IMG/VR virus record: IMGVR_UViG_3300020201_000022
Coordinates: 1 to 55,764 of that record
DNA from: a virus
Lineage: Duplodnaviria > Caudoviricetes
Direction: 5' to 3' (one strand)
Length of the DNA: 55,764 nucleotides
Position numbers and translations under genes: made by a program. The number at the start of each line of letters is the position of its first letter. Position 1 is the first letter of the stretch. Positions 38,518 through 55,764 of the stretch are shown here, piece after piece. A model generated the notes under the pieces. That model was given only the letters and a program-made list of their open reading frames with translations. It made no database searches and was not told where the DNA came from.

Positions 38518-38709
38518 ATGGTTAGTGAAGAAATAATTTTAGATCGTGATCGTGTTCACTGCATGGTTTTGGTTTTGACGGAACTACTAAAGGTCGAATC
38601 GCATTTTCAGTTTAAGTTGCGGTTCTCCAACAAAGAAACCGGCGAAAGGACGCTAACAATCGTCCCGCACTGTACGCCAGTCGAAATCAAGCTGGAAAGC
38701 TCGCGATGA
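38518..38709 (+). CDS. Hypothetical protein whose stop overlaps attC1
   Basis: TGA 38707-38709 overlaps GAAC. Confidence 0.55.
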   Translation: MVSEEIILDRDRVHCMVLVLTELLKVESHFQFKLRFSNKETGERTLTIVPHCTPVEIKLESSR

Positions 38710-38791
38710 ACGTTTTGATTCAGGAAGCCGCGACCGCTGCGGCTTCCCTCCACGTTGGAGATGTTAGCGGCTTTCCTGCAATCATTTGTTC
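38708..38791 (-). mobile_element. attC-like site 1
   Basis: GAAC gttt tgatt-cagg...cctg-C-aatca ttt GTTC; 84 bp. Confidence 0.85.
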
Positions 38792-38811
38792 TCTGACTCG
38801 TGAGGTTTGAT

Positions 38812-39006: not shown

Positions 39007-39013
39007 AGTCAGA

Positions 39014-39097
39014 GAACGCTCGCATTGAAAACGCGGGCGACGAAATATTGGACCACACCGATAGACCTGATTCGCACGCGTTTTCAATGCGTTGTTA
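39014..39097 (-). mobile_element. attC-like site 2
   Basis: GAAC gct cgcattgaaaacgcg...cgcgttttcaatgcg tt GTTA; 84 bp; no clear extrahelical base. Confidence 0.75.
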
Positions 39098-39134
39098 CCG
39101 CGTCGGAAAACTATTTCGGGAAATACGCAAACAT

Positions 39135-39602: not shown

Positions 39603-39793
39603 TGCCACGTCATAGCCTCGGCACAAAAGCCCCCAGCGGCGCAAGCCGCGTTATCCGCTGCAAAATCAGTGAAGCGGAAGAGCATGCGGCGAAAGCCGCT
39701 GTGAATGAAGGCGAAAGCCTGAGTGAGCTAATTCGGATCGCGTTAGCTCGTGAAGTCAAACGCCGCGAAAAGGCTGCAAGTCGATCGCGGTAA
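39602..39793 (+). CDS. Ribbon-helix-helix/CopG-like regulator
   Basis: IRCKIS.AE...A...GESLSELIR.AL; TGATG coupling; stop overlaps attC3. Confidence 0.7.
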   Translation: MPRHSLGTKAPSGASRVIRCKISEAEEHAAKAAVNEGESLSELIRIALAREVKRREKAASRSR

Positions 39794-39876
39794 CGTCAGC
39801 AATAATCCGCGTCGGGAGGCGCGACTATGACCAAACCAAAAGACACCAATCCCGACTCGGATTCATTGCGTTGTTC
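39791..39876 (-). mobile_element. attC-like site 3 (identical core to attC6)
   Basis: TAAC gtca gcaat-aatccg...cggatt-C-attgc gtt GTTC; 86 bp. Confidence 0.9.
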
Positions 39877-40147
39877 GTCAGCGAATTACGCTGACGGCAC
39901 ACCAATAACTCCAGAGTGGTTGGACTCGATATTCACGAGCGAAACGATGAACGGACATTCCCTACTGATCGACGGCTATGGCGATCTAATCGAATTGTAT
40001 CTTGCAGAAGATATTGACAAGCCGGGCGTTTATCGTGCGTCAATGATGCAGAGCGAGCCAGCGGACCTTATTGCGATTACTGGTCGCGTTTTCGTTACGC
40101 GCGGAAGCGTGCATTTGCTATTGAATGCGTTGGGGCATTTCGTCTGA
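39827..40147 (+). CDS. Cassette gene starting inside attC3
   Basis: GGAGG RBS and ATG lie in the attC loop. Confidence 0.7.
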   Translation: MTKPKDTNPDSDSLRCSSANYADGTPITPEWLDSIFTSETMNGHSLLIDGYGDLIELYLAEDIDKPGVYRASMMQSEPADLIAITGRVFVTRGSVHLLLNALGHFV

Positions 40148-40148
40148 C

Positions 40149-40232
40149 GAACGTTGAATTCATTTGGTTCGCGGGTTTGAGTTCGCCCCGCACAAACCAA
40201 CGTAATGCGAACTCAAATGCAATTATTTGTTC
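40149..40232 (-). mobile_element. attC-like site 4
   Basis: GAAC gttg aatt-catttg-gttcgc...gcgaac-T-caaatg-C-aatt attt GTTC; 84 bp. Confidence 0.9.
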
Positions 40233-40252
40233 GTCGTTTCGGGAGTGCAGGC

Positions 40253-41225: not shown

Positions 41226-41540
41226 ATGAGCAAGACAGTACGAGTGATCGGCGACACAAAAGCAATCAAAGAAACACTCAAGAAGCACGGCTTTTTGTGG
41301 AACGCAGAAAAGTCGCGATGGCATAAATCGGTGAGCGACACGCAAGCTGAGCAACTGCTGAACGCAGACACACAGGACGCAACGCTGGCTGCGTTCCAGT
41401 GGAAATATCGAGGGTGCCAAGTGTCGGTGGGCGACACAGTGGTTTTCACGAGCAAGAAATTTGCGACTCTGGCTTCTGATGGCCAGTCGGACCCCGACGC
41501 TTTGGATGCAGATGGGCAGCCAAGATGGATGAGCTATTAA
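41226..41540 (+). CDS. Cassette gene, DUF5710-like
   Basis: GDT..IKE.LK..GF.WN.EK..W.K. Confidence 0.65.
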   Translation: MSKTVRVIGDTKAIKETLKKHGFLWNAEKSRWHKSVSDTQAEQLLNADTQDATLAAFQWKYRGCQVSVGDTVVFTSKKFATLASDGQSDPDALDADGQPRWMSY

Positions 41541-41752
41541 TGATTGATCCAACGAAGTACGGCACGATCACTGAGACGGCTCAGGCCGCCGGGATCGGTC
41601 GCGGTGGATTGCGTCACGCAATTGATCGCGGCGAGATCACGCAAACCGTCGAAACAATCGGTGGCACAACGCTGGTGAGTGTGGCGGCTGCGTTGCGTTG
41701 GTCAAAAAACCGGCCACCGCGAGGGCCAAAGCGGCAGGACAAATCCGCATAA
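41540..41752 (+). CDS. Small HTH protein (near-identical inverted copy at 55540-55752)
   Basis: TITETAQAAGIGR..LR.AI.RG; stop overlaps attC5. Confidence 0.75.
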   Translation: MIDPTKYGTITETAQAAGIGRGGLRHAIDRGEITQTVETIGGTTLVSVAAALRWSKNRPPRGPKRQDKSA

Positions 41753-41834
41753 CGTTTTGATTCATCGAGCAACGGAAAGTAAACAATGACTACAAAAAAC
41801 GCTCAACCCGTTGCTTCGATGCAATCAATTGTTC
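41750..41834 (-). mobile_element. attC-like site 5
   Basis: TAAC gttt tgatt-catcga-gcaacgg...ccgttgc-T-tcgatg-C-aatca att GTTC; 85 bp. Confidence 0.9.
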
Positions 41835-42223
41835 GTCGTCTCCCTAATGCGGTAAAGCAGACGACGCCAACCAATTGTTTCCAAGCATGTGTTGCAACAG
41901 TGCTTGGCGTGCCGATTGAAGACGTGCCCGAAGCGTGTGATGGTGCCAAGTGGGATTGGGATGCGTTCCAAGACTGGCTGGCGTTGCGAGGGCTGCAAGC
42001 GATTGAAGTCGGATTCGGAAATGGTGGAACCATTTACCCAGTGCGTCATCCGGTGTTGTGCATTGTCACCGGAAGATCGCCGCGAGAATGCACAACAGGC
42101 CGTCACGCGGTCGTAGGCGAATTACTAGGGCTGGAAGGATTCCGATTGCTGCATGATCCGCATCCGTCTGATGTGTGGATTGACGGCGAGCCAACGCACG
42201 CTGTGTTTTTTGTTTCGATTTGA
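41786..42223 (+). CDS. Cassette gene, papain/C39-like Cys-His-Asp protein, starting inside attC5
   Basis: Q....NCFQACVA..L, HAVV, HDPHP. Confidence 0.65.
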   Translation: MTTKNAQPVASMQSIVRRLPNAVKQTTPTNCFQACVATVLGVPIEDVPEACDGAKWDWDAFQDWLALRGLQAIEVGFGNGGTIYPVRHPVLCIVTGRSPRECTTGRHAVVGELLGLEGFRLLHDPHPSDVWIDGEPTHAVFFVSI

Positions 42224-42316: not shown

Positions 42317-42500
42317 TGTCGCTACGCCAGTCGGGGTTGTGCCGTGCAAGGTCGGGACGCAACCGTGGCTGGTCGTGGTAAACAGAAGACGCAAAACAAT
42401 TAAGGTCGGCGACGTTATTTTAATACGCGAGGCCGGCGTAGGACACAAATGGATTCGCGTTCGTGTCGAGAATCTCGAACCTTTGCGAGTTAGTCGATAG
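42267..42500 (+). CDS. Cassette gene starting inside attC6
   Basis: Shares MTKPKDTNPDSDSLRCS with the 39827 ORF, then unrelated. Confidence 0.65.
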   Translation: MTKPKDTNPDSDSLRCSVATPVGVVPCKVGTQPWLVVVNRRRKTIKVGDVILIREAGVGHKWIRVRVENLEPLRVSR

Positions 42501-42583
42501 AACGATTACAATCACCGGGAACGCGGTGACAAACTAACCATTTCAAAAGACTTCGCCGCGTTCTCCGGTGCATTGTCTTGTTC
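42500..42583 (-). mobile_element. attC-like site 7
   Basis: Minus strand reads GAACAAGACAAT-G-CACCGG-A-GAACGCGG...CCGCGTTC-CCGGTG-ATTGTAATCGTTC; 84 bp. Confidence 0.9.
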
Positions 42584-42609
42584 TAACGCCAGAGTTTACG
42601 GAAACGAAA

Positions 42610-43029: not shown

Positions 43030-43062
43030 AACAACTTATTATGACGCTACGCGCAGAATAAT
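43029..43062 (-). mobile_element. attI-like array end site
   Basis: AACAACTTATT-N10-GCGCA-GAATAA, conserved at 55511-55541; not a full palindrome. Confidence 0.6.
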
Positions 43063-43173
43063 TCTCGAGGCAGTGCCGTTGATATCGACGCAGATTGCGA
43101 ACCCTCAGTTGCGAGTTTTTGCGGGTTAGAAAACTCGATTTATTAGTGATCGAAAACGGATAGGTAAAACAGC

Positions 43174-43989
43174 ATGAAGCGGGACGCTTTTACACACCCC
43201 AAAACGCTCGACTTGGCATCGCGATTAGACATTAGCCGCGCTCACGCGATCGGTATCCTGGCGCTACTCTGCGACTTCACGGCGACCTACGCTCCGCAGG
43301 GTGACATCGGTAAACATCGCGATGGTGCGATAGCTCGCGGGTGTGACTGGGTAGGTAATCCAGGGGAATTTATTCAAGCCCTACTGGACTCCGGGTGGTT
43401 GGACCTAGACCCCTCACATAGACTGGTTGTGCACGATTGGGAAGACCATTGCGAGCAGTGGGTTAGACTCAAATTGGCTAAACTGAAACTAGCCTTTATA
43501 GTGGTAAAATCCTCAGCAGAGCCTATTGCAGAGCCTATTGCAGAGCGCTCAGCAGAAGCCAGCGCCTCGCGTGACCTATCCTATCCTATCCTATCCCCTC
43601 CTAGCCTAGCCAAGCCTTCACCCTCCTCTACCCTCCTATCCTCAGCAGTGCCGACTAGATCGATGGACGAGGACGAGGGAATTTTGAAAGTTGATTTTGA
43701 TGATTGCTTACGATCGTGCTTGCGGTTGAGCAAGGCGTGTCTTGCACGATCGCACAAGCTGTCAGCCGACGAAATCTGGAAGCTCGTCTGGATGGCGATG
43801 GCGCTGGGGCAGGATGGCCTCATCGCGGAAGTAGCTACGAAGATTCACAACCGAGAAGTCACGAAGCCCAAAGCGTATATCGACGCGTCATTGCGAAAGG
43901 CGTGTATCGAGCGAAACACCGATATGCTTCGTGTCGCAAGGTGCGCACCCGAAAGACCGAAACCAATTACGGCCAACGCGGATATTTAA
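43174..43989 (+). CDS. Phage replication initiator with internal iteron-like repeats
   Basis: HPKT..LA..L....A.G.L..L, L..SGWLD...VHDW..H; gcagagcctatt and cctat repeats at 43516-43595. Confidence 0.75.
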   Translation: MKRDAFTHPKTLDLASRLDISRAHAIGILALLCDFTATYAPQGDIGKHRDGAIARGCDWVGNPGEFIQALLDSGWLDLDPSHRLVVHDWEDHCEQWVRLKLAKLKLAFIVVKSSAEPIAEPIAERSAEASASRDLSYPILSPPSLAKPSPSSTLLSSAVPTRSMDEDEGILKVDFDDCLRSCLRLSKACLARSHKLSADEIWKLVWMAMALGQDGLIAEVATKIHNREVTKPKAYIDASLRKACIERNTDMLRVARCAPERPKPITANADI

Positions 43990-44541: not shown

Positions 44542-44579
44542 TGAATCTTTTGAACATCCTGAACATCCTGAACGCATTC
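44542..44579 (+). promoter_or_regulatory. Second copy of the 9-bp-periodic motif, upstream of the lysis-position operon
   Basis: Matches 7860-7897. Confidence 0.55.
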
Positions 44580-44694
44580 CGTCGCCTTGGTGCTTTACAC
44601 CGGCTCGAAGTTGCTGCAAGCTCGCTAAGTGCCACCAGACGCCCGCTAACGAGCGTAAAACTTTTAGCCCGACATTTGCCGAAGGAATCACCAA

Positions 44695-45534
44695 ATGCGT
44701 TCTCCGTCGATCCTCACCGCTGCAATCGCGTGCCTGCTGTCGAGCAGCGCGTTCGGCCAGATTTTCCCGAATGCGTTTTGGAATGCTCCCGCGAAAGTTA
44801 GTTCATCCTGCCCTGGTGGGGTTTGCCCGACGGGTGTGACAACTGCAAATACCGCGCCGGGTCACTGGAGTTACCCAGGCTCAATCGATTCGCATCTCGA
44901 AGGAACCCACGGCGTTTCGACGGCGGGCATGAGCTTTCAGCAAAAACGGAACCTGCATGATTCGCTCCACGAAAGCCCGATGTCGGATCAGTTCAGGCAA
45001 TATCCGGCAGTTTCAAAATCCACCAGCTACGGTTCGGCGGGCTCCTCAGTGCGCGGCTACGGCTCAAGCGGATCTTCGTTCGGTCGCGACTACGACGGCG
45101 CTGTGATCACCTCGGTTGGCCCACCTTTGGCACCACCACTGCCTCAAGCGGCAGTAAACGACGTTTCGGCGCTCAAGGTCGGCGATAGGGTCGCTTTCAG
45201 GCGTGCGTTGCTCGATGCCGGTCGCAAAGCCAGGGATTGCGGGGATATTACTTCGCTCGAATTTTTCATGCTTTCCGCGTCGAGTCGCAACCCTAGAACG
45301 CTCGAGAAAATGCAAGCGGCTGTACACGAAGCAGCGATCGAAGAAGGCCTTGCAACGACTCAGGCGATCAACTGGGACGGGTTGATTGAGTTCATCGAGA
45401 AGCTTATTCCGATCATTATTAAGTTGATTGATTTGTTTTCAATGAGTCAACCTATGCAATCGTTCGATTTTGTGCCCGTCCAGCAGTATGCATACAGCCC
45501 ACCGTTGCAGGATTGCTTCGCGTCGGCGGTCTAG
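44695..45534 (+). CDS. Secreted protein with CPGGVC motif and C-terminal amphipathic helix
   Basis: Signal peptide ending SSAFG; INWDGLIEFIEKLIPIIIKLIDLF. Confidence 0.7.
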   Translation: MRSPSILTAAIACLLSSSAFGQIFPNAFWNAPAKVSSSCPGGVCPTGVTTANTAPGHWSYPGSIDSHLEGTHGVSTAGMSFQQKRNLHDSLHESPMSDQFRQYPAVSKSTSYGSAGSSVRGYGSSGSSFGRDYDGAVITSVGPPLAPPLPQAAVNDVSALKVGDRVAFRRALLDAGRKARDCGDITSLEFFMLSASSRNPRTLEKMQAAVHEAAIEEGLATTQAINWDGLIEFIEKLIPIIIKLIDLFSMSQPMQSFDFVPVQQYAYSPPLQDCFASAV

Positions 45535-45572
45535 TCTCTGCGTTCGAACCTGTCGGCTGGAGCAATCAGATA

Positions 45573-46523
45573 ATGGACGACGAAAATAGATTCCATTTGC
45601 CACCGGATTTATTCATTGACGAATCGCAAGTCTTCCCACTGTCGGACGAGTTGCCGAAGGGTGCCTGGCACATTACCGCGAAGCTGCGCGAGCTGCACAA
45701 TCGCAAGGTCGACGGAGCCAACGTCATCGTTGCAGTCAACGATACGGCCGGTCAAGCCGATCACCCGTTCCTGCCAAAGCAACTGGCCGGCAAAGACTTC
45801 ACCAACTCACGCTATGGACTGCGCGACACACATGGGCACGGAACGCATTGCCAAGGAATCGTCATCAGTGTCGCTCCAAAGGCGAGTCTTGTAACCGCGA
45901 AAGTGCTCGGCGACTCCGGCAGTGGTTCAACGACTGGGATCAATGCAGGACGAGTGTGGGCAGCGCAGCAAGGCGCGGATGTGATCAGCGAATCACTCGG
46001 AGACGGCGGCGGACCACCACTCGCGGCAGACCTTGCGGCCTACGATCAAGCCTACGCAGCCGGTGCATCAATTTGCGTAGCAGCATTAGGCAACGCTGGC
46101 TACAACGGTCGTTCCACCATCGGGCGACCTGGTTCTTACTCGACTCGCAATCACGGCATCGCGGCTATCGGATCCGATTGGCGTACGATCGCGGGTTTCT
46201 CCAGTGGTGGGCCTCAAGCTCGCTTCGCCGCTCCCGGCGCTGGAATCATCAGTTGTCGACCTGGTGCCGGTTGGGTCACGATGAGCGGTACGTCGATGGC
46301 GACTCCGTGGCAAGCTGGCCTTTACGCGTTGCTGATCGGCTATCGCCGTGGCATCGGATTGCCCGACTTGAAAGGGCCTGAAGAATGGTCCGACTGGTTC
46401 GTTACCGAGAAGCTGACCGTCGATCTCGGTGCGCCTGGCTGGGATCCGAGATATGGCAACGGCCTGGTCGACGTGAACAAGGTTGCTGATTATCTTCTGG
46501 AGCGCACAACACAAAATGTTTAA
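45573..46523 (+). CDS. Subtilisin-like S8 serine peptidase
   Basis: VAVNDT, HGHGTHC, AALGN, FSS.GP, SGTSMATP, YGNG. Confidence 0.92.
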   Translation: MDDENRFHLPPDLFIDESQVFPLSDELPKGAWHITAKLRELHNRKVDGANVIVAVNDTAGQADHPFLPKQLAGKDFTNSRYGLRDTHGHGTHCQGIVISVAPKASLVTAKVLGDSGSGSTTGINAGRVWAAQQGADVISESLGDGGGPPLAADLAAYDQAYAAGASICVAALGNAGYNGRSTIGRPGSYSTRNHGIAAIGSDWRTIAGFSSGGPQARFAAPGAGIISCRPGAGWVTMSGTSMATPWQAGLYALLIGYRRGIGLPDLKGPEEWSDWFVTEKLTVDLGAPGWDPRYGNGLVDVNKVADYLLERTTQNV

Positions 46524-47271
46524 GCCAATCCTGATTCTGCTGCTGCTGTGCTCGTCTGCTTTCGCGCAAGTGAAGGTTGATGTCGAACCGTTCTCCGCGA
46601 TCATCGCGAAGTCTGCGAGAGTTGAGCCCCTGGTTGATTCCGTGGCGGTCATAGTCACTGATCGAATCGCTGATCGTAGCGGAGCGTTCTTGACGATAGC
46701 TTCCGAATCGAAGTGGGCAACTCCGTATATCGATGCAAGCGGCGTGGAGATTTCTCAATCGCAGGCTGACGCAAAACGCTGGATCATGTTTGCGAAGCCG
46801 GGCAAGTATCGCGTGCAAATCATCGAATTCGACCCAGAGCGCGGACCACGATTCACGCCCGTCGAAGTCGTTATCGGCACGCCAACAAAACCCGATGAGC
46901 CCGGCACGCCCGAAAAACCCGAAGATCCAAAGCCGCCAGTCGGCGATTTTGTTGCGTTGAGAAACTCGGCGGATGAACTGGCCGACAAACTGAACGATCC
47001 GCCAACGCGAGCATCACTCGCGAAAGCCTACGAACATGCTCTCAATGCAGCGGCCGGCAAAGACTATGCTCAGTCGCGTGAGATTGTCACGATGTCGCGC
47101 TTCATCGCGCTCAACTCGCGCGAAGGTGCATCGCTCCAGAAGGATTGGACCTCCGGCTTCCTAAAGCCAATTGACGCTAAACTCTCGCAACTCGTAAAAG
47201 CCGGCGACGTGGCCGCGTACGCGCTCGCAATTACAGCGATTCAAAAAGGCTTAGTTCAAAATGCCAACTGA
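46516..47271 (+). CDS. Secreted protein with PGKY beta domain, Pro-rich linker and helical domain
   Basis: Signal peptide MFKPILILLLLCSSAFA. Confidence 0.75.
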   Translation: MFKPILILLLLCSSAFAQVKVDVEPFSAIIAKSARVEPLVDSVAVIVTDRIADRSGAFLTIASESKWATPYIDASGVEISQSQADAKRWIMFAKPGKYRVQIIEFDPERGPRFTPVEVVIGTPTKPDEPGTPEKPEDPKPPVGDFVALRNSADELADKLNDPPTRASLAKAYEHALNAAAGKDYAQSREIVTMSRFIALNSREGASLQKDWTSGFLKPIDAKLSQLVKAGDVAAYALAITAIQKGLVQNAN

Positions 47272-47566
47272 TCCAAACATTATCGGCAGTGTCCTTTCAA
47301 CGCTTGGCATTGGCGGCGCTCTGGTGTGGTATCTGTATTACACCACCAGCGTGACAATGCCGAAACGTGATGATCACTACTCGCAAACGCTAAACGAGAT
47401 CACCAAAGAGTTTACGACGTGCCTGAAGGAAGAGCGAGATTATCGACGCACTGAGATCATCGAACTCAAGGCGGTCATTCGTGAATCCAGGTGCCTGTTT
47501 ACTTTGCCAGAAAAACAGAATCAAAGAGTACAGCAAGAATCGGAATCAACTCGGAATGAACCTTGA
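47261..47566 (+). CDS. Holin-like single-TM coiled-coil protein
   Basis: LGIGGALVWYLYY TM followed by a coiled coil. Confidence 0.55.
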   Translation: MPTDPNIIGSVLSTLGIGGALVWYLYYTTSVTMPKRDDHYSQTLNEITKEFTTCLKEERDYRRTEIIELKAVIRESRCLFTLPEKQNQRVQQESESTRNEP

Positions 47567-47675
47567 CGCCCAACAATTTGCAGTGGTCGCCGTGATGCTC
47601 TGTATCCTGCTCATCACTTACGCCTGCCTCTATCGCTGGGACGAAAACTACCCGAACGATCAAGGCGCTGAATAA
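47556..47675 (+). CDS. Small TM peptide
   Basis: FAVVAVMLCILLITYACLY. Confidence 0.5.
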   Translation: MNLDAQQFAVVAVMLCILLITYACLYRWDENYPNDQGAE

Positions 47676-47721
47676 TTTTGCGGGCAACCGGCCGCATGAA
47701 ACCGTAACCCGAGCTGACCCA

Positions 47722-48048
47722 ATGCCACCACCGACCGCTCGCCCGTCGCTATGTTCAACTTGCGGCGCTCGCAAGATAGGCCGCTGCAATCGCTGCCGCC
47801 AGCCTCGCACCAATCGCAAGTCAGCGCATCAGCGGGGCTACGATCGTCGCTGGCGAACCGCGTCGCTGACCTTCCTTGCTCGGCCCGAAAACCGCACCTG
47901 TGCCATCTGCAAAAATCGCCTCGCCGAATGCGTCGACCACATCATTGACCATCACGGCGACAAAGAAACATTCTGGGACGTGAGCAACTGGCAACCCGCC
48001 TGCATCGCCTGCAACACCCGCAAAGCCCACCGCCGCAAACGCCACTAA
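47722..48048 (+). CDS. HNH endonuclease (cos-phage terminase-associated type)
   Basis: SA.QRGY..RW, C..C, VDHI..H.GD...FWD.SNWQ..C..CN. Confidence 0.92.
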   Translation: MPPPTARPSLCSTCGARKIGRCNRCRQPRTNRKSAHQRGYDRRWRTASLTFLARPENRTCAICKNRLAECVDHIIDHHGDKETFWDVSNWQPACIACNTRKAHRRKRH

Positions 48049-48101
48049 GCACCAAGCACCAAGCACTCCCCACCAAGCACCAAGCACCAAGCACCAAGCA
48101 C
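48043..48101. repeat. Heptamer tandem repeat (ACCAAGC/ACTAAGC)
   Basis: Seen directly. Confidence 0.9.
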
Positions 48102-48114
48102 GAATTTGAATTAA

Positions 48115-48615
48115 ATGGGCCAACGCGGACCGCTCCCCAAACCAACTTCAGCTCGAGCGCGCGAAGGCAACCCGCGCCGGCGTCCGCTGCCAACGGATGA
48201 ACCCAGCCCGGCAGAGATCGCTATCGACCGCCTGCCACCACCGCCGGATCATCTGACCGCCGACGCCAAGCAAGTATTCTCCGCGCTCGCCAAGCTGCTG
48301 AGCGATTCGAAATTGCTGACCGTTGCCGACGTGCTGCCCATTGAATTACTGGCCGACTGCTACACGCAATGGATCAAGGCGCTGAAGATCCGCGCCGAGG
48401 CTGGCGTGATAACGCAGATGCTGAACCGCGATGGCGAAGTAATCGGTTCATGCGAGTCCGCGGAATCGAAGCTCTGTAGATCCTTGGCCGCCGACTGCAA
48501 CCGCTGGTTCAAAGTTTTAGGCCTCGGCCCCGCCTACCGCGTCGGCTTGCGAATGACCACCGACGGAGCCGACGAAATCGAAGATCCATTGGCCGCGTCG
48601 ATAGCGAATGGATAA
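48115..48615 (+). CDS. terS: Terminase small subunit, P27 family
   Basis: RGP.PKPT.....GNP.RR, PPP.HL...AK..F, LGL.P..R. Confidence 0.9.
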   Translation: MGQRGPLPKPTSARAREGNPRRRPLPTDEPSPAEIAIDRLPPPPDHLTADAKQVFSALAKLLSDSKLLTVADVLPIELLADCYTQWIKALKIRAEAGVITQMLNRDGEVIGSCESAESKLCRSLAADCNRWFKVLGLGPAYRVGLRMTTDGADEIEDPLAASIANG

Positions 48616-48626
48616 CAAACAAAACC

Positions 48627-48657
48627 GTGCTTGGTTCTTGGTGCTTGGTGCTTGGTT
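48627..48657. repeat. Heptamer repeat (GCTTGGT/TCTTGGT) at the convergence junction
   Basis: Seen directly. Confidence 0.85.
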
Positions 48658-49066
48658 ACGCGTGCAGGATGTCGGTGGCTTCGATGGAGAGATCTAACTG
48701 GGTCGCTGTTGCAGCGGTGCCTAGTCGACTGATCCGATTGCCGGTCGCTAGATCCGCGTCGGGCACAACCTCACCAGCCGTTGCACCGACGTAATAGGTC
48801 TCTCCGACCAGCATCGTTGTGCCGACCAGAATCACACTGCCCGCCGTTGCCACGTAGCCGTAGCCGTCGGCGACGCCTGGCGTCATCGACACGCCTTTGA
48901 CCGTCGCCGCCGCCGAGCTGAGATTGTTGTCAGACAATTTTACCTTGTTGTCCGTCGCGTCCAGATAGACAGGTTGCCCGGCTGCGATCGTGGCCCCGTA
49001 TTTGTAGCGGGTGCTCTTCGTGTCGGCAGTTGGTCGAACCGCTGTAATACCAGTTAATGCCGCCAT
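48656..49066 (-). CDS. Small virion cement/fibre-like protein
   Basis: GATIAAGQPVY...L.VG.TYY...AG. Confidence 0.55.
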   Translation of the reverse strand: MAALTGITAVRPTADTKSTRYKYGATIAAGQPVYLDATDNKVKLSDNNLSSAAATVKGVSMTPGVADGYGYVATAGSVILVGTTMLVGETYYVGATAGEVVPDADLATGNRISRLGTAATATQLDLSIEATDILHA

Positions 49067-49130
49067 TTGATCCGCTCCCGAAAGTGCCTACAAAATCACA
49101 AAGAATCTACCCGTTATCAACGTTGCCAAT

Positions 49131-49619
49131 CTAAACGGCTATCTGGGACTTGTCCGACGTTTCAGCGTTCAGCAATAAACGCTCCGGCCACCAAATCGCG
49201 TAGCACTCATCCAGCGTAATGCGATTGATCCGCTTCCCCTGCTCGATCAATTCCGCCGTCACCACATCGTGCATACTCCAGCACGATTCGAAGAACGCCG
49301 GCGCGGATCCAAAATCAGGTTTCAATGCCAACCGCAACCAATTCGATTTGCACCCGCAACCCTTTTCAGGAATCCGTTTTTCCCAGTGATTGAAAAATAA
49401 CTTGGCTCTGCGAACCGACCAGTCCGCCGCGTGCTCTACTGCATACCAATGCAGCGGTGCCCAGTGATTGTATCGCGGTCCTTCGGTGACTTCCGGTTGT
49501 GGTCCTGATTGCCCTGGACCTGCACCCGCATCCCAGGCCGCTCGATACCTTGGATCTGTATCGTACAGCCGTTGCCACACTGGCGACCGATTAAGGACTG
49601 CTTGTAGTTCAGGTGTCAT
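49131..49619 (-). CDS. Erv1/Alr-like protein, paralog of 33299-33754
   Basis: HWAPLH...CGC..NW...W.MH..V. Confidence 0.6.
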   Translation of the reverse strand: MTPELQAVLNRSPVWQRLYDTDPRYRAAWDAGAGPGQSGPQPEVTEGPRYNHWAPLHWYAVEHAADWSVRRAKLFFNHWEKRIPEKGCGCKSNWLRLALKPDFGSAPAFFESCWSMHDVVTAELIEQGKRINRITLDECYAIWWPERLLLNAETSDKSQIAV

Positions 49620-50624
49620 TTAGCATTCCGTAATTACCGCTGTCCAACTGCCAGTCTCAGGCCATCCCACGCCGCCGCAAAGACACGCCAGGTCGCCATC
49701 GGTAACTTGGTACGGCCCGAACTCAAGCGAGAATGGATTGCACGATCCGGCGACTGGTGATCTCGCTACGTTGCCTCCGTTGGTCACCGTACAATCGAAT
49801 CCAAGCGGCAACAGCGTGAATGATTCCCATGTTAATCCGTCGCCGCAATTCAAAATCATCGGCCAATCGATGCCGCAACAGTTTGCCGTTCCCTCCCAAT
49901 ACGCATCAGTTCGATTCCAGCGCAGTTGAAAATCGCAGTTCAGCGAAGCCAGTCTAATGCCTGAACCTTCCAAGTGAATGTTTAGGCAAGGAGGCACGTA
50001 GTAGTCACCGCACTGGCAAACGCAACTTGGGCAACCCGGCTTAGTTTGCAGGTGATGCGCAAACTCAAAGTTGTCCATCAGAAGCGAGAGCGTAGTTGTG
50101 CCGATGCCAGCTTGATAGCCCAGAGAAATTAGCGTCGTGTCTGCCGTGACTTGCGAGGTGATTGAGAATGTTACCTGAGCACAAAATTCATTGTCGGCAA
50201 TGAACGCTGAGAATGTTCTCGCTGTTCCAGTGATTGAGCCAATGATCGCACTGTTCAGTAGCGTCTCAACTCCACCGCTAACGATGTAAAGCTGAATTTC
50301 TGAGTCGAATAAATCGTTTCGCACAAACCTTGCTAAGTGATGATTATCTTCATCAACAACATTCAAAAGCAAATCGTAAACATCGCCTTCGCTTTCTGCC
50401 ACTGTATCAACGTACACCGCCATCGAGCCCGACGGCGTTGGGTGGACTGTGTTGCAGATCGCCTTGCCGCCCGCGTCAGCACGAACTTGATTGCTGAAAA
50501 TCTCGAACGCACTTGCGGCGTATTCCGTCCAACTCGCGCCAAGTGACGCATTGTCCGCACGGTTGAAATCGTCGGCGAAGATCACGCAGCTCTCTGAACC
50601 GCAACAGCACAGTCTCGGTGGCAT
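49620..50624 (-). CDS. Cys-rich virion protein, paralog of 32297-33298
   Basis: Long identical stretches at protein level. Confidence 0.8.
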   Translation of the reverse strand: MPPRLCCCGSESCVIFADDFNRADNASLGASWTEYAASAFEIFSNQVRADAGGKAICNTVHPTPSGSMAVYVDTVAESEGDVYDLLLNVVDEDNHHLARFVRNDLFDSEIQLYIVSGGVETLLNSAIIGSITGTARTFSAFIADNEFCAQVTFSITSQVTADTTLISLGYQAGIGTTTLSLLMDNFEFAHHLQTKPGCPSCVCQCGDYYVPPCLNIHLEGSGIRLASLNCDFQLRWNRTDAYWEGTANCCGIDWPMILNCGDGLTWESFTLLPLGFDCTVTNGGNVARSPVAGSCNPFSLEFGPYQVTDGDLACLCGGVGWPETGSWTAVITEC

Positions 50625-50635
50625 TGTTCAAACTC

Positions 50636-51076
50636 CTAACATGGGTCAGCGTACAATCCGGAGTTTGCAGAACAGCAACGATTTACCGCCGCCCAGTGAA
50701 TCGGTGTCTTTTCGTCACAAGCCGCAGTGGCGTCGAGCGACAAAAATACCATCTCTGCCGCCCATACCGTGTAGCCGGTCATAACTGGCAGATCGAGAAT
50801 GCAGCCGCTGTGGTCGACGACTTCCAACTCGGTCGAAACTAAATCGTCCTGACCAGGTGGCGAGCCCTTAACCGTTACCGTCGCGACGACTAATCCGGTA
50901 TACGGTCCCGATACCGCCTCCGCAATTGAGACGACTTTGCATTCCAGCAGACTCCCCGCGCCACCGCCCTCGAACGGACGCGTGTTGTGATAGCGCCTCG
51001 GCGGTTGGTACTTGTCCTGATTTATCAGCCGCTTCAGCTTCCTCGCGGCTTCCTCGGTCAATGTGAAATCTTTCAC
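50636..51076 (-). CDS. Tail-tip adaptor, homologous to the C-terminus of the 30891 ORF
   Basis: GPYTGL.VATVT...VVDH.GC..DL...HWAA..RCC shared. Confidence 0.7.
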   Translation of the reverse strand: MKDFTLTEEAARKLKRLINQDKYQPPRRYHNTRPFEGGGAGSLLECKVVSIAEAVSGPYTGLVVATVTVKGSPPGQDDLVSTELEVVDHSGCILDLPVMTGYTVWAAEMVFLSLDATAACDEKTPIHWAAVNRCCSANSGLYADPC

Positions 51077-52098
51077 GATCCGAGAGCCCCCAGCAGTGTG
51101 AGCGTATTGAAATCAATCTCTTCGAAATCCAACCATTCGCCGTACACGACCGGATCACTCGGAGCGGCTGGTTGCCCATCGCCGTTGAGGTAAACCGGAT
51201 CTTGGATCGATCGCCCGTTCAGATCTTTCAGCGCCGCGTGCATCGGCTTGCCCGCGTCCAGCAGCGTACCAATCACTCCAGGATCACCAGGAGCCGCCCG
51301 TCGTGACGTGCCCTTGTCTTGGATCAGCCATTCCCAACCCTGCGGATCATGCGCGACTTCCACGGTGATCTCGACCAGATTGACATTGCCCCATCGCATC
51401 TTGGAAAGGTTGACTGAATCAAGCAGGGCAGTGCGAGCGGACCACAGGAAAGACTTGCCGCCAAACAGCACCGTGAAAGCGACTTGGTTTAGCGAGCCTT
51501 CGGCATCAACTAGATTGCTTGGCACTGTCGCCCGCAACCAACGGAATGTCCAGATGTACATCCGTCGGCGATGCTCTGGCGTTTCCACAAACGGCTGCAA
51601 CGCGGAATTCACCAACGGGCTTTTGCCGTCGGCATCTTCGTTGTCGACCATGTACGTGGCCGATGCGCCAGTCAACGAGTATCCATCCACGTACTTTGCT
51701 TTCACCGCTGGTTCATGCACCACCACGGTTCGCCGCTGCCATGTCGGTGACCAGTCTTCCGGATCGATCGAGCCGCTGTTCGGTGTCGGCGTTGATTGCT
51801 GATCGGGCTCGTCTTCTTCCATCTCTTTCCAGTGGACGTTGACGGTCCACAGGTAACCCTGATTGGCTTCGGATGAACAGGTGATCCGATCACAGATTAA
51901 ATAGTTACTGCCGAGTTGCTTGAGCGTTCCCTTTGGAATCGGGTTGCCGGATGATACCCACAGTTCCGCCATCTCGACTTTATCGATGCGAGCGCTGACG
52001 CGAACCAGGTACTGATCCACGTCGCTGGCCGTGGTTGCGCTGAACTCCAGGTCACCCGTCCGCAACCGTCGCTGTCTAATAATTAGGGCCATATACAA
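51073..52098 (-). CDS. Tail protein after TMP
   Basis: LVNSA..PF, D.G, P.YLNG.G pattern; position. Confidence 0.6.
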   Translation of the reverse strand: MYMALIIRQRRLRTGDLEFSATTASDVDQYLVRVSARIDKVEMAELWVSSGNPIPKGTLKQLGSNYLICDRITCSSEANQGYLWTVNVHWKEMEEDEPDQQSTPTPNSGSIDPEDWSPTWQRRTVVVHEPAVKAKYVDGYSLTGASATYMVDNEDADGKSPLVNSALQPFVETPEHRRRMYIWTFRWLRATVPSNLVDAEGSLNQVAFTVLFGGKSFLWSARTALLDSVNLSKMRWGNVNLVEITVEVAHDPQGWEWLIQDKGTSRRAAPGDPGVIGTLLDAGKPMHAALKDLNGRSIQDPVYLNGDGQPAAPSDPVVYGEWLDFEEIDFNTLTLLGALGS

Positions 52099-52102
52099 AA
52101 CC

Positions 52103-52203
52103 GTTCTTGGTGCTTGGTGCTTAGTGCTTAGTGCTTAGTGCTTGGTGCTTGGTTTTTTCCCCCCGAACCAAGCACCAAGAACCAAGAACCAAGAACTAAG
52201 AAC
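52103..52203. repeat. Heptamer repeats in inverted arrangement (long hairpin)
   Basis: (gcttggt/gcttagt)n, spacer, then (accaagc/accaaga)n. Confidence 0.85.
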
Positions 52204-52212
52204 ATGTATTAT

Positions 52213-53550
52213 TTATAAATCCACGGGGATTGGTTTGTCTTGATTGCGGACCGCATCAATCAGCCGATCGGTCGACCGCTTGGCTTCATCCAGCTTGGCC
52301 ATGTGCTCCGCTTGCCGCTTCTCCGCAGCCACTGATTCCAACTTGGCCTGTTCTTCCAAACGCCGCTGAGCCTCAATCAATTCGGCGGGTGTCTGAGGTG
52401 CCTGATTCGCCGACTCATCGAAGACTGGGAAGCGTGTCGTTGGATTCAACTGCGGACCATTGGCTTGCTGGTTTTTTAGTGCGTCCTTCTCGGCCAAGCG
52501 AGTCTGCGAATCGGCTTCGTTCTCGGCTCTCACTTCTTTCAATCGGTCCAGCATTTTTTCAGCACTGTCAAACGTCAGCGCCTCACTCGCGTCGTTAAGC
52601 GCCCCGGAGAAATCGCCGACGGCGATTCGTCCCAACACATCGAACTGAACCGTCAGCAGTTCGTACAAATCTTTTGCCAAACCAACTGCCGTCGCGAGGC
52701 CATCGACAAACCCACGCATCGCCGACTGCATCCCGCCGATTTCATTGGCCGCTGCCAGAAATTCTTCGCTAAAGATTTTGAACAGCGGCGCTAGCTCAGC
52801 CGCGCCCAACTGGACTAGCCCCTCGAAGATCACGCCGACTCTCGCCCATTGGTCGCTGGCCTCAGCCGCCGCCGCCACCTGAGCATCAGACAGGCCCAAC
52901 CACTTCGCCGCAAAGTTGTATGACTCCTCGATCGCATCCGCCCCGCCGCGCAACGCTCCGACTAAGCCAGCCGCCCCCTTGCCAAACAAATCGTAGGCGA
53001 TCGCTAGCTGTGCCGTCGGATCGCCAATCTGTCTGGTTGCTTCCGCGATCTGCTTCAGCGCTTCCACCGGACCCGCTTGCAGCAATGCGCCCGCATCCAG
53101 CCCCAATCGGTCAAGGGCTTCCTTGGTTTTGCCCGAACCAGATCGAGCCTCATCAAGACCGACCAGCAATTTTTGCAACGCGGTATCGATCGTCCCCGAG
53201 TCCAAGCCGGTCAGCTCGCCGAGGGAAAACTCCAGCCCTCGCAGCTCCGTGAAACTGATCGCCAGTTTATTGGCCACGTCCGCTTTGTCGGCGATCCTAT
53301 CCAGTTCGTCATAGACGCCGCGAATCGCGATCACTGCCGTAGCCGCACCCGCAGCCAGCGCGGCAAAACCTGCGGTCACCGCTGCTGTGATCGGTGTTCC
53401 GATGCCCGCGAAAACATCCTTCAGCCCGCCGAGTTTTCCGCCGACGCCGCCGCTGAATGCGTTCACATCACGTTGCGCCTTGCCCAGCTCCGTCGACAGA
53501 CCGTTAGCGTTGCCGGTGATTCTTAGATTCAGCGCTTCAAGCTGTGCCAT
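52213..53550 (-). CDS. Tape measure protein
   Basis: LNLRITGNA, ALDRLGL, LFGKG..GL helical repeats; follows TAC genes. Confidence 0.85.
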   Translation of the reverse strand: MAQLEALNLRITGNANGLSTELGKAQRDVNAFSGGVGGKLGGLKDVFAGIGTPITAAVTAGFAALAAGAATAVIAIRGVYDELDRIADKADVANKLAISFTELRGLEFSLGELTGLDSGTIDTALQKLLVGLDEARSGSGKTKEALDRLGLDAGALLQAGPVEALKQIAEATRQIGDPTAQLAIAYDLFGKGAAGLVGALRGGADAIEESYNFAAKWLGLSDAQVAAAAEASDQWARVGVIFEGLVQLGAAELAPLFKIFSEEFLAAANEIGGMQSAMRGFVDGLATAVGLAKDLYELLTVQFDVLGRIAVGDFSGALNDASEALTFDSAEKMLDRLKEVRAENEADSQTRLAEKDALKNQQANGPQLNPTTRFPVFDESANQAPQTPAELIEAQRRLEEQAKLESVAAEKRQAEHMAKLDEAKRSTDRLIDAVRNQDKPIPVDL

Positions 53551-53872
53551 CGGTCTGAGCCTTTTCTTTTTCCGCCGCTGCTGCCCTGTCTGCGTCTAGT
53601 CTCTCTGCGTCTAGCCTGTCTGCGTCCAGCAACGCGATCAGATCATCGTCATCTGCATCCACGCAACCCACATGCGGATAGGTGGGTCGCACGTCCTCGA
53701 ACTTTGCCCCTCGCTGCCACATCGATGCTACCGCCGCTCGATAGTCTCGCCGCGTCTCGCCCCACGGATCTATTTCATAGAGCGCCAACCAGTCGAGCAA
53801 TTCATCCGTCGTCAGATCCTGGATCAGATACCGAGGGTGTCTGTATCCGAGTTCTCTGGACAAGGCGAACAT
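53537..53872 (-). CDS. Tail assembly chaperone GT part (-1 frame)
   Basis: EL..W.A.Y..DPWG..R.D.RAA motif. Confidence 0.8.
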   Translation of the reverse strand: MFALSRELGYRHPRYLIQDLTTDELLDWLALYEIDPWGETRRDYRAAVASMWQRGAKFEDVRPTYPHVGCVDADDDDLIALLDADRLDAERLDADRAAAAEKEKAQTDGTA

Positions 53873-54228
53873 GGCTCGGACTGATTCGGCTCCGATTTTT
53901 TTTTACGTTCTTCACTCGCCCCGCACAGCTCATTGAACTCACGGACTGCCTTAGCCAGCTCGACCATTTGCGACGGATGCCGAAGCAACCAACTTCGCCC
54001 GCGTTCGTTATCAAATACACCAGGCCCGTTTTCGTCCCCGATTCCCAACTGGCATTCACGCAACGAATAGGGAATCATTTCTTCCGCCGAAGCGTGCGGC
54101 AACCGCATCAATTCAAAAACCTGTTGAGACTCAAGTCTCCACAGATAAAGGCCACCAGGCCAACCCTCAATTTCGAGTTTACGCTTAACCGGAAACGCGA
54201 CTTCTAACGCAGCCAACAATTCAATCAT
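53824..54228 (-). CDS. Tail assembly chaperone G with slippery site A AAA AAA (53896-53904)
   Basis: N.L...EE.KKK end; the -1 frame opens right after a TAA at the A9 run. Confidence 0.8.
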   Translation of the reverse strand: MIELLAALEVAFPVKRKLEIEGWPGGLYLWRLESQQVFELMRLPHASAEEMIPYSLRECQLGIGDENGPGVFDNERGRSWLLRHPSQMVELAKAVREFNELCGASEERKKKSEPNQSEPCSPCPENSDTDTLGI

Positions 54229-54233
54229 AGTTC

Positions 54234-54262
54234 CACCAAACTAAGCACTAAGAACCAAGCAC
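54234..54262. repeat. Heptamer repeat upstream of TAC
   Basis: ctaagcactaagaaccaagcac. Confidence 0.75.
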
Positions 54263-54269
54263 GCATTTA

Positions 54270-54572
54270 TTATTTATCCAATGAACATCGAAGACAAACC
54301 GCCGTGGTGATCAGTGCGCGACACGTCGGGCACCGATGCTCTCTGACCGTATCCGATTCAAACGGCAGGACCTCGCGTCGAATCTCAGCGATCAGTGATC
54401 TATTGCGGCCAAGCTCGCGTTCGAGTTCACGCAAGGGCCTATTGTCACTGTCCAGTAGAAAGCGTCGGATGTTTTGCTTTTCTTCATCCGTCGCAGGCTT
54501 ACGCGGTCTCGGCGTCAAATCCGCTGACCAACGGTAACAAGAGCTGTAATGAATGCGGGTGATCCCCGCCAC
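54270..54572 (-). CDS. HTH plus Zn-ribbon protein
   Basis: LRELERELGRNRS.I..IR; CPTC...CLRC. Confidence 0.65.
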   Translation of the reverse strand: MAGITRIHYSSCYRWSADLTPRPRKPATDEEKQNIRRFLLDSDNRPLRELERELGRNRSLIAEIRREVLPFESDTVREHRCPTCRALITTAVCLRCSLDK

Positions 54573-54891
54573 TGCTCTGAACGTCCGACCGCTTGCGATC
54601 AGCAGTCTTACGCGCCGAACTCGGCTTTTTTTTTTCGACTTCCGAGGCCGCGAAATTATTGACGATGGTCGCCGCGATCAATTGAGATGGTTCAATTCCC
54701 GTCAGCGCCGAAGTCTGCTCGAAATGGTCGACGATCGATTGCGGCAGATCCAACGTCCACGGATCGTTGATTGTGATCCTGCCAGTGCTACCAGTGCTGC
54801 TACTCAGATTCGATGCCGACCCTGCGAAATTTCGGTTGGGCAGGACTCTTTGGACTGCCACGCGGTTGAGATCTCGGCTTTCGTTTTCCAT
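54499..54891 (-). CDS. Hypothetical protein
   Basis: 130-aa ORF overlapping its neighbours. Confidence 0.45.
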   Translation of the reverse strand: MENESRDLNRVAVQRVLPNRNFAGSASNLSSSTGSTGRITINDPWTLDLPQSIVDHFEQTSALTGIEPSQLIAATIVNNFAASEVEKKKPSSARKTADRKRSDVQSSGGDHPHSLQLLLPLVSGFDAETA

Positions 54892-55339
54892 TTTGGAGCA
54901 CGTCCTTTGCGTTGTTTGTTTGGTCCGACCACCCCGGCAAACTGTCCACTAGCTGTTGATCCTTCACCGCCGAAAGCCGCAACGTGATACCACGTTTCCG
55001 CCGCCTTTCGCCCCAGAAGCGAAGAACGCACACAACTTGACAATCATTGTACAACACACCCGCCGACTGTAGCGAGTCCCACAGTGCCTTCTCGTAATTG
55101 TCCAGATCGCAGCTCTGCCCGTTGGGGTGCAGGACCAGCACCGCCGCCACCGGCCCTAAGAATTTCGGTAACCGCATCTGTAGGCAAAGGGCCTGCACCT
55201 CGGTTCGGTATCGCTTGGCCTCCGCTGAAAGATAGACTCCGCCGCTATGATGGCCCCAGTATTTATTGACCGACGGCGGCATAGGAAAGACTGCTTCCGC
55301 CGACTGGTCAGACTTCAGAAACTCAAGCCATCGTTCCAT
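54800..55339 (-). CDS. rusA: RusA-family resolvase
   Basis: PPSVN.YW, DLDN..KA..DSL..AG...ND.QV. Confidence 0.9.
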   Translation of the reverse strand: MERWLEFLKSDQSAEAVFPMPPSVNKYWGHHSGGVYLSAEAKRYRTEVQALCLQMRLPKFLGPVAAVLVLHPNGQSCDLDNYEKALWDSLQSAGVLYNDCQVVCVLRFWGERRRKRGITLRLSAVKDQQLVDSLPGWSDQTNNAKDVLQNGKRKPRSQPRGSPKSPAQPKFRRVGIESE

Positions 55340-55357
55340 CGCTCGGCCTATGAAAAA

Positions 55358-55495
55358 CTAGCCAACAACCCGCAACTTGAACGGCTCCCCGCTCATTGTC
55401 TCAGCGACATTCAAAACGTGTCGGTACAGATAACAGAGCGCCGAGAACGCTTGCACCCGGATCATTTCATACAGTTGCGTTTTCAACTCACTCAC
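55358..55495 (-). pseudogene. Probable internally deleted integron integrase remnant (45 codons)
   Basis: GGAGA RBS, GTG start; SELKTQLYEMIRVQAFSALCYLYRHVL resembles the IntI N-terminus joined to the QALxALxFLYxxVL motif; adjacent to the attI-like site. Confidence 0.6.
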
Positions 55496-55510
55496 GTTTT
55501 CGTCTCCGTG

Positions 55511-55545
55511 TTATTTGCGCTAAACTGACCAATAAGTTGTTACTC
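55511..55545 (+). mobile_element. attI-like site of element 2
   Basis: TTATT-TGCGC-N10-AATAAGTT-GTT, matches the reverse complement of 43029-43062. Confidence 0.6.
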
Positions 55546-55752
55546 GGATTTGTCCTGCCGCTTTGGCCCTCGCGGTGGCCGGTTTTTTGACCAACGCAAC
55601 GCAGCCGCCACACTCACCAGCGTTGTGCCACCGATTGTTTCGACGGTTTGCTTGATCTCGCCGCGATCAATTGCGTGACGCAATCCACCGCGACCGATCC
55701 CGGCGGCCTGAGCCGTCTCAGTGATCGTGCCGTACTTCGTTGGATCAATCAT
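55540..55752 (-). CDS. HTH cassette gene, inverted copy of 41540-41752
   Basis: 55764-55653 identical to 41528-41639; two aa differences overall. Confidence 0.85.
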   Translation of the reverse strand: MIDPTKYGTITETAQAAGIGRGGLRHAIDRGEIKQTVETIGGTTLVSVAAALRWSKNRPPRGPKRQDKSE

Positions 55753-55764
55753 TAATAGCTCATC

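Follow-up and report, generated by a model that had tools for sequence, protein, structure and literature searches.

The end of the contig and its two phages

At the end of the uncultivated viral record IMGVR_UViG_3300020201_000022 (55,764 nt, class linear, CheckV completeness 100%), the whole of which was analysed and is called the window here, lie three genes, all on the minus strand: a gene for a helix-turn-helix (HTH) protein, a 45-codon open reading frame (ORF), here ORF45, which is flanked by the HTH gene 55540..55752 (-) and rusA, and rusA itself. A preliminary description had read this end as a collapsed integron, with an integrase gene (intI) reduced to a remnant, an attI site and a first cassette, and the present work concerns that candidate integron platform and the exchange of cassettes between phages that it would imply. 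The features at issue are listed below, together with the two phages, A and B, to which the window is assigned; L001 is a contig from a JGI metagenome (1-3299) and G402 an IMG/VR record, both described further on.

1-47069: phage A, the commoner of the two phages
47259-55764: phage B, an 8.5-kb piece, roughly three-fold rarer than A
54800..55339 (-): rusA (Holliday-junction resolvase), first backbone gene past the presumed stump and putative inner edge of the platform
55340..55384: stretch common to B and L001, with complete divergence upstream of 55384
55358..55495 (-): ORF45, 45 amino acids, GTG start, probable intI stump
55496..55541 (+): attI-like site of phage B, with an 11-mer at the junction and weaker likeness to G402 beyond it
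55540..55764 (-): first cassette of phage B, visible part, made up of the HTH gene 55540..55752 and 12 nt
41525..41752 (+): copy of the HTH gene in phage A, last gene of a three-gene cassette between the sites attC4 and attC5

The record is probably an assembly chimera of the two phages. Self-BLAST revealed that window 1-189 is a repeat of 47070-47258 at 97.4% identity, and when Logan contigs from four microbial-mat runs (X1-X4) were mapped on 40000-55764, a step in depth at about 47260 was common to all four; in X1 the depth is 25-45 over 40000-47363 and approximately 10 in most bins over 47364-55253. Further, a contig of X4 has a loose end at 47258 with 30 bases equal to window 190-219, and at position 47197 all four runs have the base of window 128. 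Because of the depth step, the X4 loose end and the base at 47197 we assign the contig to two genomes and take phage A to be a circle or concatemer unit of 47,069 nt. The assembler probably passed from A to B inside the 189-nt repeat and ended inside a second common stretch, the HTH gene.

This second stretch, 55539-55764 (-), matches 41528-41753 (+) over 226 nt with 98.7% identity (E 6e-110, self-BLAST), which bears out the earlier claim that the two HTH genes are the same cassette. The copies have one difference inside the gene and two adjacent ones in the last codon, then share TAAC, and then have no similarity at all; as had been proposed, the similarity thus ends at TAAC, which is the G|TT core of attC5. 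Past the HTH gene, the 12 nt in B match the upstream gene of phage A, and the match reaches the last base of the contig, whose end cuts the cassette, so that the far boundary lies beyond the contig. An X1 contig covering 52889-55574 has no differences to the window and crosses the junction between the HTH gene and the spacer by 35 nt; hence the junction is present in reads and not only in this assembly, with the reservation that X1 is possibly the source sample, which makes this a check on the assembler and not on the biology.

The HTH protein belongs to a rare family. It has a weak likeness to HTH_17 (E 0.042, 14.6 bits against a Pfam cut-off of 27) and to a PHROG directionality factor (E 0.051), the copies in the window have no NCBIfam match, and neither HTH_17 nor TIGR01764 places them among excisionase-type proteins. 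Only 5 relatives were found among 5.8 billion proteins, and among Planctomycetota the family was seen in one of 401 genomes. The sole genomic relative of the gene that was found, on contig L002 (245-493, +) of a metagenome-assembled genome (MAG) from Planctomycetota, is 51% identical and itself scores 17 bits against a cut-off of 28.8. It converges on 542-1540 (-), which encodes a 332-residue IntI-like recombinase that reaches 201.8 bits with TIGR02249, short of the cut-off of 265; no attC-type site lies on this contig, and on another contig the same MAG has an above-cut-off integrase.

The product of rusA is a clear family member (Pfam RusA PF05866, 46.3 bits against a cut-off of 22.8; PHROG 34, E 2e-25). 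No DNA or protein match to the contig-end locus was found among GenBank phages, a protein search of IMG/VR with RusA, the HTH protein and the HTH alignment gave no relatives, although near-identical records may be left out of that search, and a 30-mer across the B junction had no match in IMG/VR. A close relative of phage B is L001, in which 1917-3299 equals window 55384-54002 at 99.2% identity, rusA included. Upstream of rusA, L001 carries other cassettes, with small genes that differ from those of B, and the slot of ORF45 is taken by an unrelated 63-codon ORF that has only its last 8-9 codons in common with ORF45. In addition, one of the cassette genes of L001, for an Arc-like repressor, is 84.5% identical to window 39602-39795, which belongs to phage A.

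attC-type sites and the cassettes between them

A pattern search with the attC consensus (RYYYAAC...GTTRRRY, 45-150 nt apart, at least 6/7 complementary) returned no site in the window vs 2.2 in shuffled sequence, a result that on its own speaks against an integron. With the same pattern, 21 sites were found in 15 kb beside the above-cut-off integrase gene of Planctomycetota genome G013, 5 more in a second array of G013, and 3 in genome G024. Two covariance models were built. The first, R1, was made from 26 of 29 bacterial sites, from two genomes of Planctomycetota, that flank integrase genes scoring above the TIGR02249 cut-off (left out were L044 3496-3588 and 12838-12930, identical to a kept site, and a 60-nt site at 8316-8375) and was searched with filters off; the second, R2, was built from the seven phage sites that R1 found, four in the window and three in L001. 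R1 matched the window with 29.0-36.9 bits and L001 with 23.4-28.6 bits, which may be compared with 20-28 bits on arrays of other species, and all of its phage matches are full length and on the strand opposite to the genes. Together the models delineate the following sites, for which E-values, as those of home-made models, are rough and to that extent weaken the case.

38705..38793 (-): attC1 of phage A, R2 26.3 bits, E 1e-3
39012..39099 (-): attC2 of phage A, the weakest, R2 20.7 bits, E 0.018
39790..39879 (-): attC3 of phage A, R1 29.0 bits, E 1e-5
40146..40235 (-): attC4 of phage A, R1 29.4 bits, holding the start codon of the DUF5131 gene (40205)
41747..41837 (-): attC5 of phage A, R2 41.1 bits, E 4e-7; R1 10.3 bits
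42229..42319 (-): attC6 of phage A, R1 match at 42228-42320 with 34.8 bits, E 3e-7
42497..42586 (-): attC7 of phage A, R1 36.9 bits, E 9e-8
43030..43090 (-): attI-like end of the phage A array, with the same 11-mer as B and G402
L001 269-359, 1006-1091, 1365-1462 and 1732-1822: four attC-type sites, that at 1365-1462 with R2 20.4 bits

Phage A therefore has seven co-oriented attC-type sites over 38705-42586 (3.9 kb). The fifth of these, attC5, is the site that the preliminary description had invoked at the phage A copy of the cassette, and the R2 match leaves little doubt that it is real; its G|TT core overlaps the stop codon of the HTH gene (TAA|C at 41750-41753), and the hairpin at the HTH junction of phage A (z -2.1) is its inner stem. 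A cluster of attC sites lacking integrase (CALIN) is defined as at least two such sites close together without an integrase (Qi et al. 2023, PMC9892861), and the array of phage A, with seven close sites and no tyrosine recombinase in the whole 55.8-kb record, falls under this definition. An early reading of the stretch between the HTH gene and rusA as plain mosaicism, taken from the zero count of the pattern search, was overturned by the covariance models.

The architecture of the sites points the same way. Across the 11 phage sites of the window and L001, 95.7% of the cells are paired, with compensatory change in 9 of the 13 pairs; these sites were aligned by fitting to the model, which favours the pairing figures somewhat. 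The covariation score is 0.684 vs 0.161 in shuffles, none of 500 shuffles reached it, and controls with slid partners collapsed. In the inner helix, pairing is 100% and 6 of 7 pairs covary, and the AAC/GTT ends are invariant (11/11), so that the sites have the structure of attC while departing from the strict consensus. In the reciprocal search, R2 had matches in 5 of 151 Planctomycetota genomes, 27 of them in G013 and 20 in G138, and those of G013 fall in the arrays beside its integrase genes. From the R1 matches and the reciprocal R2 matches, the phage sites are, as far as sequence and predicted folding go, members of the attC family of particular Planctomycetota chromosomal integrons, and this hints at Planctomycetota as the host. 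At the DNA level, no match was found between the array and G013, G024 or G001. An integrase above the TIGR02249 cut-off was found in 17 of 81 Planctomycetota genomes searched. No Rfam family was found in the window at the gathering threshold.

Elsewhere in IMG/VR, a 21-nt attC pattern was found at 38 loci, and R2 had matches in three of these: L063, which is G402, L067 (attC-type site at 11725-11814, 58.7 bits) and L083 (56-146 and 1725-1811, 31.4 and 37.7 bits). No tyrosine recombinase was found in the records of L067 or L083. Within the window, sites 3 and 6 form an exact direct repeat of 85 nt (39792-39876 and 42232-42316), through which two different genes share an upstream region and their first 16-17 codons.

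Canonical integron geometry had been claimed for the contig end, and this stands for intI, attI and the polarity of attC but not for the cassette genes, which, unlike those of bacterial arrays, run antisense to attC. In phage A, the cassette genes (DUF5131, E 5e-77; Arc-like; HTH) are on the plus strand and the attC sites on the minus strand, and in L001 and G402, too, the cassette ORFs are antisense to attC where co-orientation is usual. At 18 of the 19 sites (window 7/7, G402 8/8, L001 3/4) a plus-strand ORF terminates no more than 12 nt from the R' end, and at 11 of the 19 it does so with the TAA of the sequence TAA|C, which reads G|TTA on the other strand; TAAC is not typical of stop codons in these genomes, being present at 7 of 62 gene ends. 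At five of the seven sites of the window, the start of the next long ORF lies within the site. With starts often inside attC, stops often in the R' core and an antisense orientation, the cassette genes would be read together with the operon of the phage, in the direction of intI, and not outward from an integron promoter.

The attI-like boundary, G402 and ORF45

The sequence past the crossover point in B had been called attI-like. At the cassette edge, in the orientation of the attC top strand (+ strand), B reads ...AATAAGTTG|TTACTCGG, and the end of the phage A array at 43030-43040 reads ...AATAAGTTG|TTCTAACG. The 11-mer AATAAGTTG|TT occurs at exactly two places in the window, 43030-43040 and 55531-55541, and among 101 fetched loci it was found at one distinct place, the boundary between the cassettes and intI of G402. 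The description is supported by this 11-mer at both boundaries and by the weaker likeness to the G402 spacer beyond it, which in B runs on from the 11-mer to the start codon; the score of B was reached by 11 of 2000 shuffles and that of A by 10 of 2000. From the 11-mer, or attI core, to the next gene start the distance is 46 nt in B (to ORF45) and 53 nt in G402 (to the integrase gene), and a GGAG-type ribosome-binding site lies 8-9 nt upstream of both starts (for ORF45, GGAG at 8 nt). Neither R1 nor R2 had a match at this place in B, and DNA folding gave no sign of structure in the B spacer (z -0.67 and -0.40). The 11-mer is not in the attI regions of G013. An IMG/VR search with a 20-nt attI-like pattern gave 10 loci, among which G402 is the only relevant one; the other nine lack attC-type sites and probably match by chance. 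Beside the attI-like end of phage A, the slot of the integrase is occupied by 43174..43989, which points away and encodes a replication-initiation protein (PHROG 9474, E 9e-20).

G402 (39,783 nt, terminal repeats, CheckV 100%) is, judging by its genes and sites, a complete phage integron. It has eight R2 attC sites at 3039-6263 (-), then the 11-mer, and then the start of an integrase with 282.4 bits to TIGR02249 (cut-off 265) and the domains PF13495 and PF00589; one of its cassettes carries a methylase gene (N6_N4_Mtase, E 9e-23) antisense to the attC sites. The relative with a full intI that the preliminary description had suggested looking for is thereby in hand, with the same attC family and the same 11-mer. 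By blastn or tblastx, G402 has no other similarity to the window, and it follows that the integron system, and not the backbone, is common to the three phages A, B and G402. These comparisons make it likely, and more so than the view of ORF45 that follows, that B preserves the attI and the integrase start of a platform like that of G402.

ORF45 exists as described (55358..55495, minus strand, GTG start, with a translation the same as that given earlier), and it points away from the attI-like site as intI does, its position and direction being those of intI in G402. Its claimed likeness to IntI is shown only weakly, with curated libraries silent. An IntI profile made from 20 of 30 Planctomycetota matches (dropping two rows with internal stops and eight partial matches) was searched against 1124 six-frame, stop-to-stop pieces of the window of at least 30 residues, and the top match was the frame of ORF45, with 10.9 bits and E 0.012 among the 1124 pieces over 21 residues; the score was reached by none of 100 shuffled windows, of which the maximum was 10.7. 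The match covers profile positions 59-79, a conserved helix of the N-terminal domain. In Smith-Waterman alignments with two integrases of MAG G001, the score of ORF45 was reached by 1 and 23 of 1000 shuffles, and an alignment permitting long gaps sets residues 2-14 of ORF45 against 1-13 of the G402 IntI, skips about 60 residues and then aligns the helix and a short further piece, with a score reached by 2 of 2000 shuffles.

Several results tell against this view. ORF45 has no match in Pfam (E<=10), PHROGs, NCBIfam or PDB sequences; phmmer against 1.84 billion proteins gave a single match, to a repetitive protein of 217 residues, which was judged spurious for its repetitiveness. The BLASTP and HMM comparison of the peptide with IntI, proposed earlier as a check, came out divided, in that the profile gave the match above, while BLASTP gave nothing at E<=100 with the L002 integrase and only off-register pieces with the G402 IntI (E 0.11). 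No tyrosine recombinase domain was found in the six frames of the window (PF00589, E<=1; PF13495 and TIGR02249, E<=10), and recombination would thus need an enzyme from elsewhere. The likeness itself amounts to a 21-residue helix and a gapped fit, and with 45 residues covering part of the N-terminal domain only, ORF45 is without the catalytic domain and active-site residues, a remnant at best and not a member of the IntI family. On balance, because of the profile likeness taken together with position, direction, spacing and the homologous upstream region, we lean towards ORF45 being a stump of intI that keeps the start, one helix of the N-terminal domain and a short tail.

Proposed cassette exchange, its alternatives and known systems

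The observation on which exchange of cassettes rests is that the same cassette stands behind attC5 in A and behind the attI-like site in B. Joints in contigs of the microbial-mat runs are consistent with it: in X3, 40145 is joined to 42228 (9 ambiguous nt), at the R' cores of attC4 and attC6, and 42230 to 43029 (4 ambiguous nt; 42230-42234 to 43029-43033), at the R' core of attC6 and that of the attI-like end of A, and in X1 a loose end leaves at 40153, just past the core of attC4. The claim of cassette exchange between phages by site-specific recombination accordingly stands as regards the common cassette ending at a G|TT core, whereas the recombination itself is deduced from sequence. We consider it likely that the last 400 bases are the inner end of an integron platform on phage B and that cassettes move by IntI-catalysed recombination. 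On the plus strand the order would be the intI stump pointing away (55495->55358), attI (55496-55539) and the first cassette (55540 onward), with the crossover presumably between G55539 and T55540 and with the HTH gene of this first cassette read back towards attI. The array of phage A is a CALIN with an attI-like end and no integrase. Cassettes would move between phages, and perhaps a host chromosomal integron, through attC x attI and attC x attC recombination, and because no integrase gene is present in A, which is complete, or in the visible part of B, the enzyme would be supplied in trans by the host or a co-infecting phage. ORF45 may be what remains of intI after in-frame deletions. Only tentatively do we extend this to the possibility that Planctomycetota phages carry an integron line of their own with backward cassettes, swapping early genes, the platform running on integrase in trans after the shrinkage of intI (B) or its loss (A).

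Certain observations fit this scheme poorly. The two adjacent differences between A and B lie just inside the R' box of the cassette, which means that there was no fresh transfer between these two genomes. The joint 41840->43029 falls beyond the R'' end of attC5, by 3 nt, and the joint 40487->45076 is at no site. The Arc-like gene of A and L001 ends at TAAC and loses similarity at the start codon, not at a site, and B and L001 diverge at 55384 without a clean G|TT. Beyond 47.3 kb, in phage B, R2 had no match at E<=5 except a 25-nt fragment at 54458-54482; the contig stops within the first cassette of B, which accounts for the absence of a visible attC there. Finally, the short identities at the joints fit homologous recombination too.

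Homologous recombination is at the heart of the alternative that survives best, ordinary phage mosaicism, in which the HTH gene would have been exchanged by homologous or illegitimate recombination where genes meet, the repeats would be mere conserved linkers with short homology, no integrase would take part, and ORF45 would be an unrelated early gene. Several module edges do lie away from attC cores, the 85-nt identity of sites 3 and 6 and joints in 4-9 nt of identity are what homologous recombination would give, there is no integrase in the window and rusA sits beside the locus, and ORF45, with its plausible ribosome-binding site and start, shares its slot with the unrelated 63-codon ORF of L001. 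Mosaicism of this kind would leave unexplained, however, that the sites are homologous to genuine integron attC, with stems kept by compensatory change, that the same family of sites stands beside a full integrase in G402, whose attI and intI-start region matches the B spacer, and that the similarity of A and B ends at the G|TT core. We think this explanation unlikely, though it deserves the most weight among the alternatives.

Improbable in our view is a second alternative, that the attC-type elements no longer recombine and are phage expression signals, structured leaders or terminators with a ribosome-binding site and start codon, whose resemblance to attC sites would be one of descent or shape alone. 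The long ORFs that start inside five of seven sites, the stops at site edges, and the same first 16-17 codons encoded by sites 3 and 6 in two genes could be so understood, but the invariant AAC/GTT ends and conserved spacing match a recombination architecture, contig joints fall at the cores, and in G402 sites of this family go together with an integrase. Least credible is an assembly artefact at the contig end, in which B would have run into the reads of A's HTH gene and would have no HTH cassette: the contig is indeed chimeric elsewhere (A and B joined inside the 189-nt repeat), and ends inside a repeat, and no independent contig was found beyond 55574, but 52889-55574 is matched without difference, B-specific last codon included, by a contig from another assembler, no 31-mer is common to A and B on the spacer side to cause a false join, and the window has a B-specific base inside the HTH gene.

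Phage-borne integrons are already known. Qi et al. 2023 (PMC9892861) report that, of 10,705 NCBI phage genomes screened, 21 had integron parts, among them 17 CALINs and, in a cryptic prophage, a complete integron, that attI heads both an integron and a CALIN, and that recombination with IntI1 succeeded for 5 of 6 phage attC sites in a conjugation-based attC x attI assay; the rule that a cassette is joined at G|TT is also theirs. Like the phages as presented there, those described here have attC arrays with or without intI, and an N6_N4 methylase cassette occurs there and in G402. Unlike those NCBI phage genomes, ours are uncultivated viral contigs with an attC family of Planctomycetota integrons, their cassettes are all antisense, one cassette is common to two co-occurring phages, and the integrase of B appears to be reduced to 45 codons. 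Literature searches gave no paper on integrons in phages of Planctomycetota or on arrays with antisense cassettes, though a similar case might stand in the supplementary phage list of Qi et al. New, accordingly, are the host-linked attC family, the consistently antisense cassettes, the cassette in two co-occurring phages and the shrinkage of intI to a presumed stump.

The chromosomal integrons of Planctomycetota (G013, G138) resemble those of the phages in their attC sites of about 90 nt with AAC/GTT ends and an inner stem of 6-7 bp, and in the polarity of attC relative to intI; they differ in that the cassette ORFs of G013 have the direction of the attC top strand and point away from intI. 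In Xanthomonas, chromosomal integrons with an inactivated or truncated intI are known in which the array and attI persist, and compared with these, the decay in B would be extreme (45 of about 336 codons), with an open frame and ribosome-binding site, and on a phage. The excisionase-integrase modules of phages offer another parallel, since in B a weakly excisionase-like HTH gene lies just upstream of the putative stump on the same strand, and in the MAG the 51%-identical HTH relative on L002 lies beside an IntI-like recombinase; unlike such modules, the HTH gene of phage A is in a cassette with no integrase near, and the genes of the MAG are convergent.

How modules are swapped precisely at gene borders in mosaic phage genomes is an old question, and some of the mosaicism in one phage group would here be explained by a defined site-specific system. 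Here the same cassette has been caught at two array positions, and contigs of another sample differ by whole cassettes. Phage-borne integrons would be extended from cultured phages to uncultivated phages that share an attC family with Planctomycetota, and with the sites and a full-length integrase (that of G402) in hand, the mechanism is open to direct recombination assays of the standard type.

Among the remaining genes of the window, phage A encodes a large terminase subunit, a 1327-residue protein whose second half holds a portal domain (18241-22224), a 2139-residue DarB-like antirestriction/methylase/helicase protein (24131-30550) and a peptidase of the subtilase family (45513-46523; Peptidase_S8, E 1e-29). 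Phage B encodes an HNH endonuclease, a small terminase subunit, a tape-measure protein, a tail chaperone-like protein and RusA. A gene pair is common to A (32296-33499, +) and B (49419-50625, -), in opposite orientation in the contig and with 80% DNA identity; its products have about 340 residues and about 150-160 residues, the latter with a weak match to Erv1/Alr sulfhydryl oxidases.

A 7-nt repeat, CACCAAG or its complement, forms arrays in phage B only, at 48043-48105, 48627-48657, 52106-52203 and 54240-54262, with 19 matches to a two-unit pattern vs 0.41 expected. They sit in intergenic gaps, as inverted pairs flanking the small-terminase gene, and a CACCAAG palindrome lies between the tape-measure gene and the next gene. 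Depth at the arrays is 10-30 times that of the surroundings, and contig joints connect 48043 to 52106 (opposite strands) and 48098 to 52169. The arrays may delimit an invertible or variable 4-kb segment, or may reflect mere repeat-driven assembly noise.

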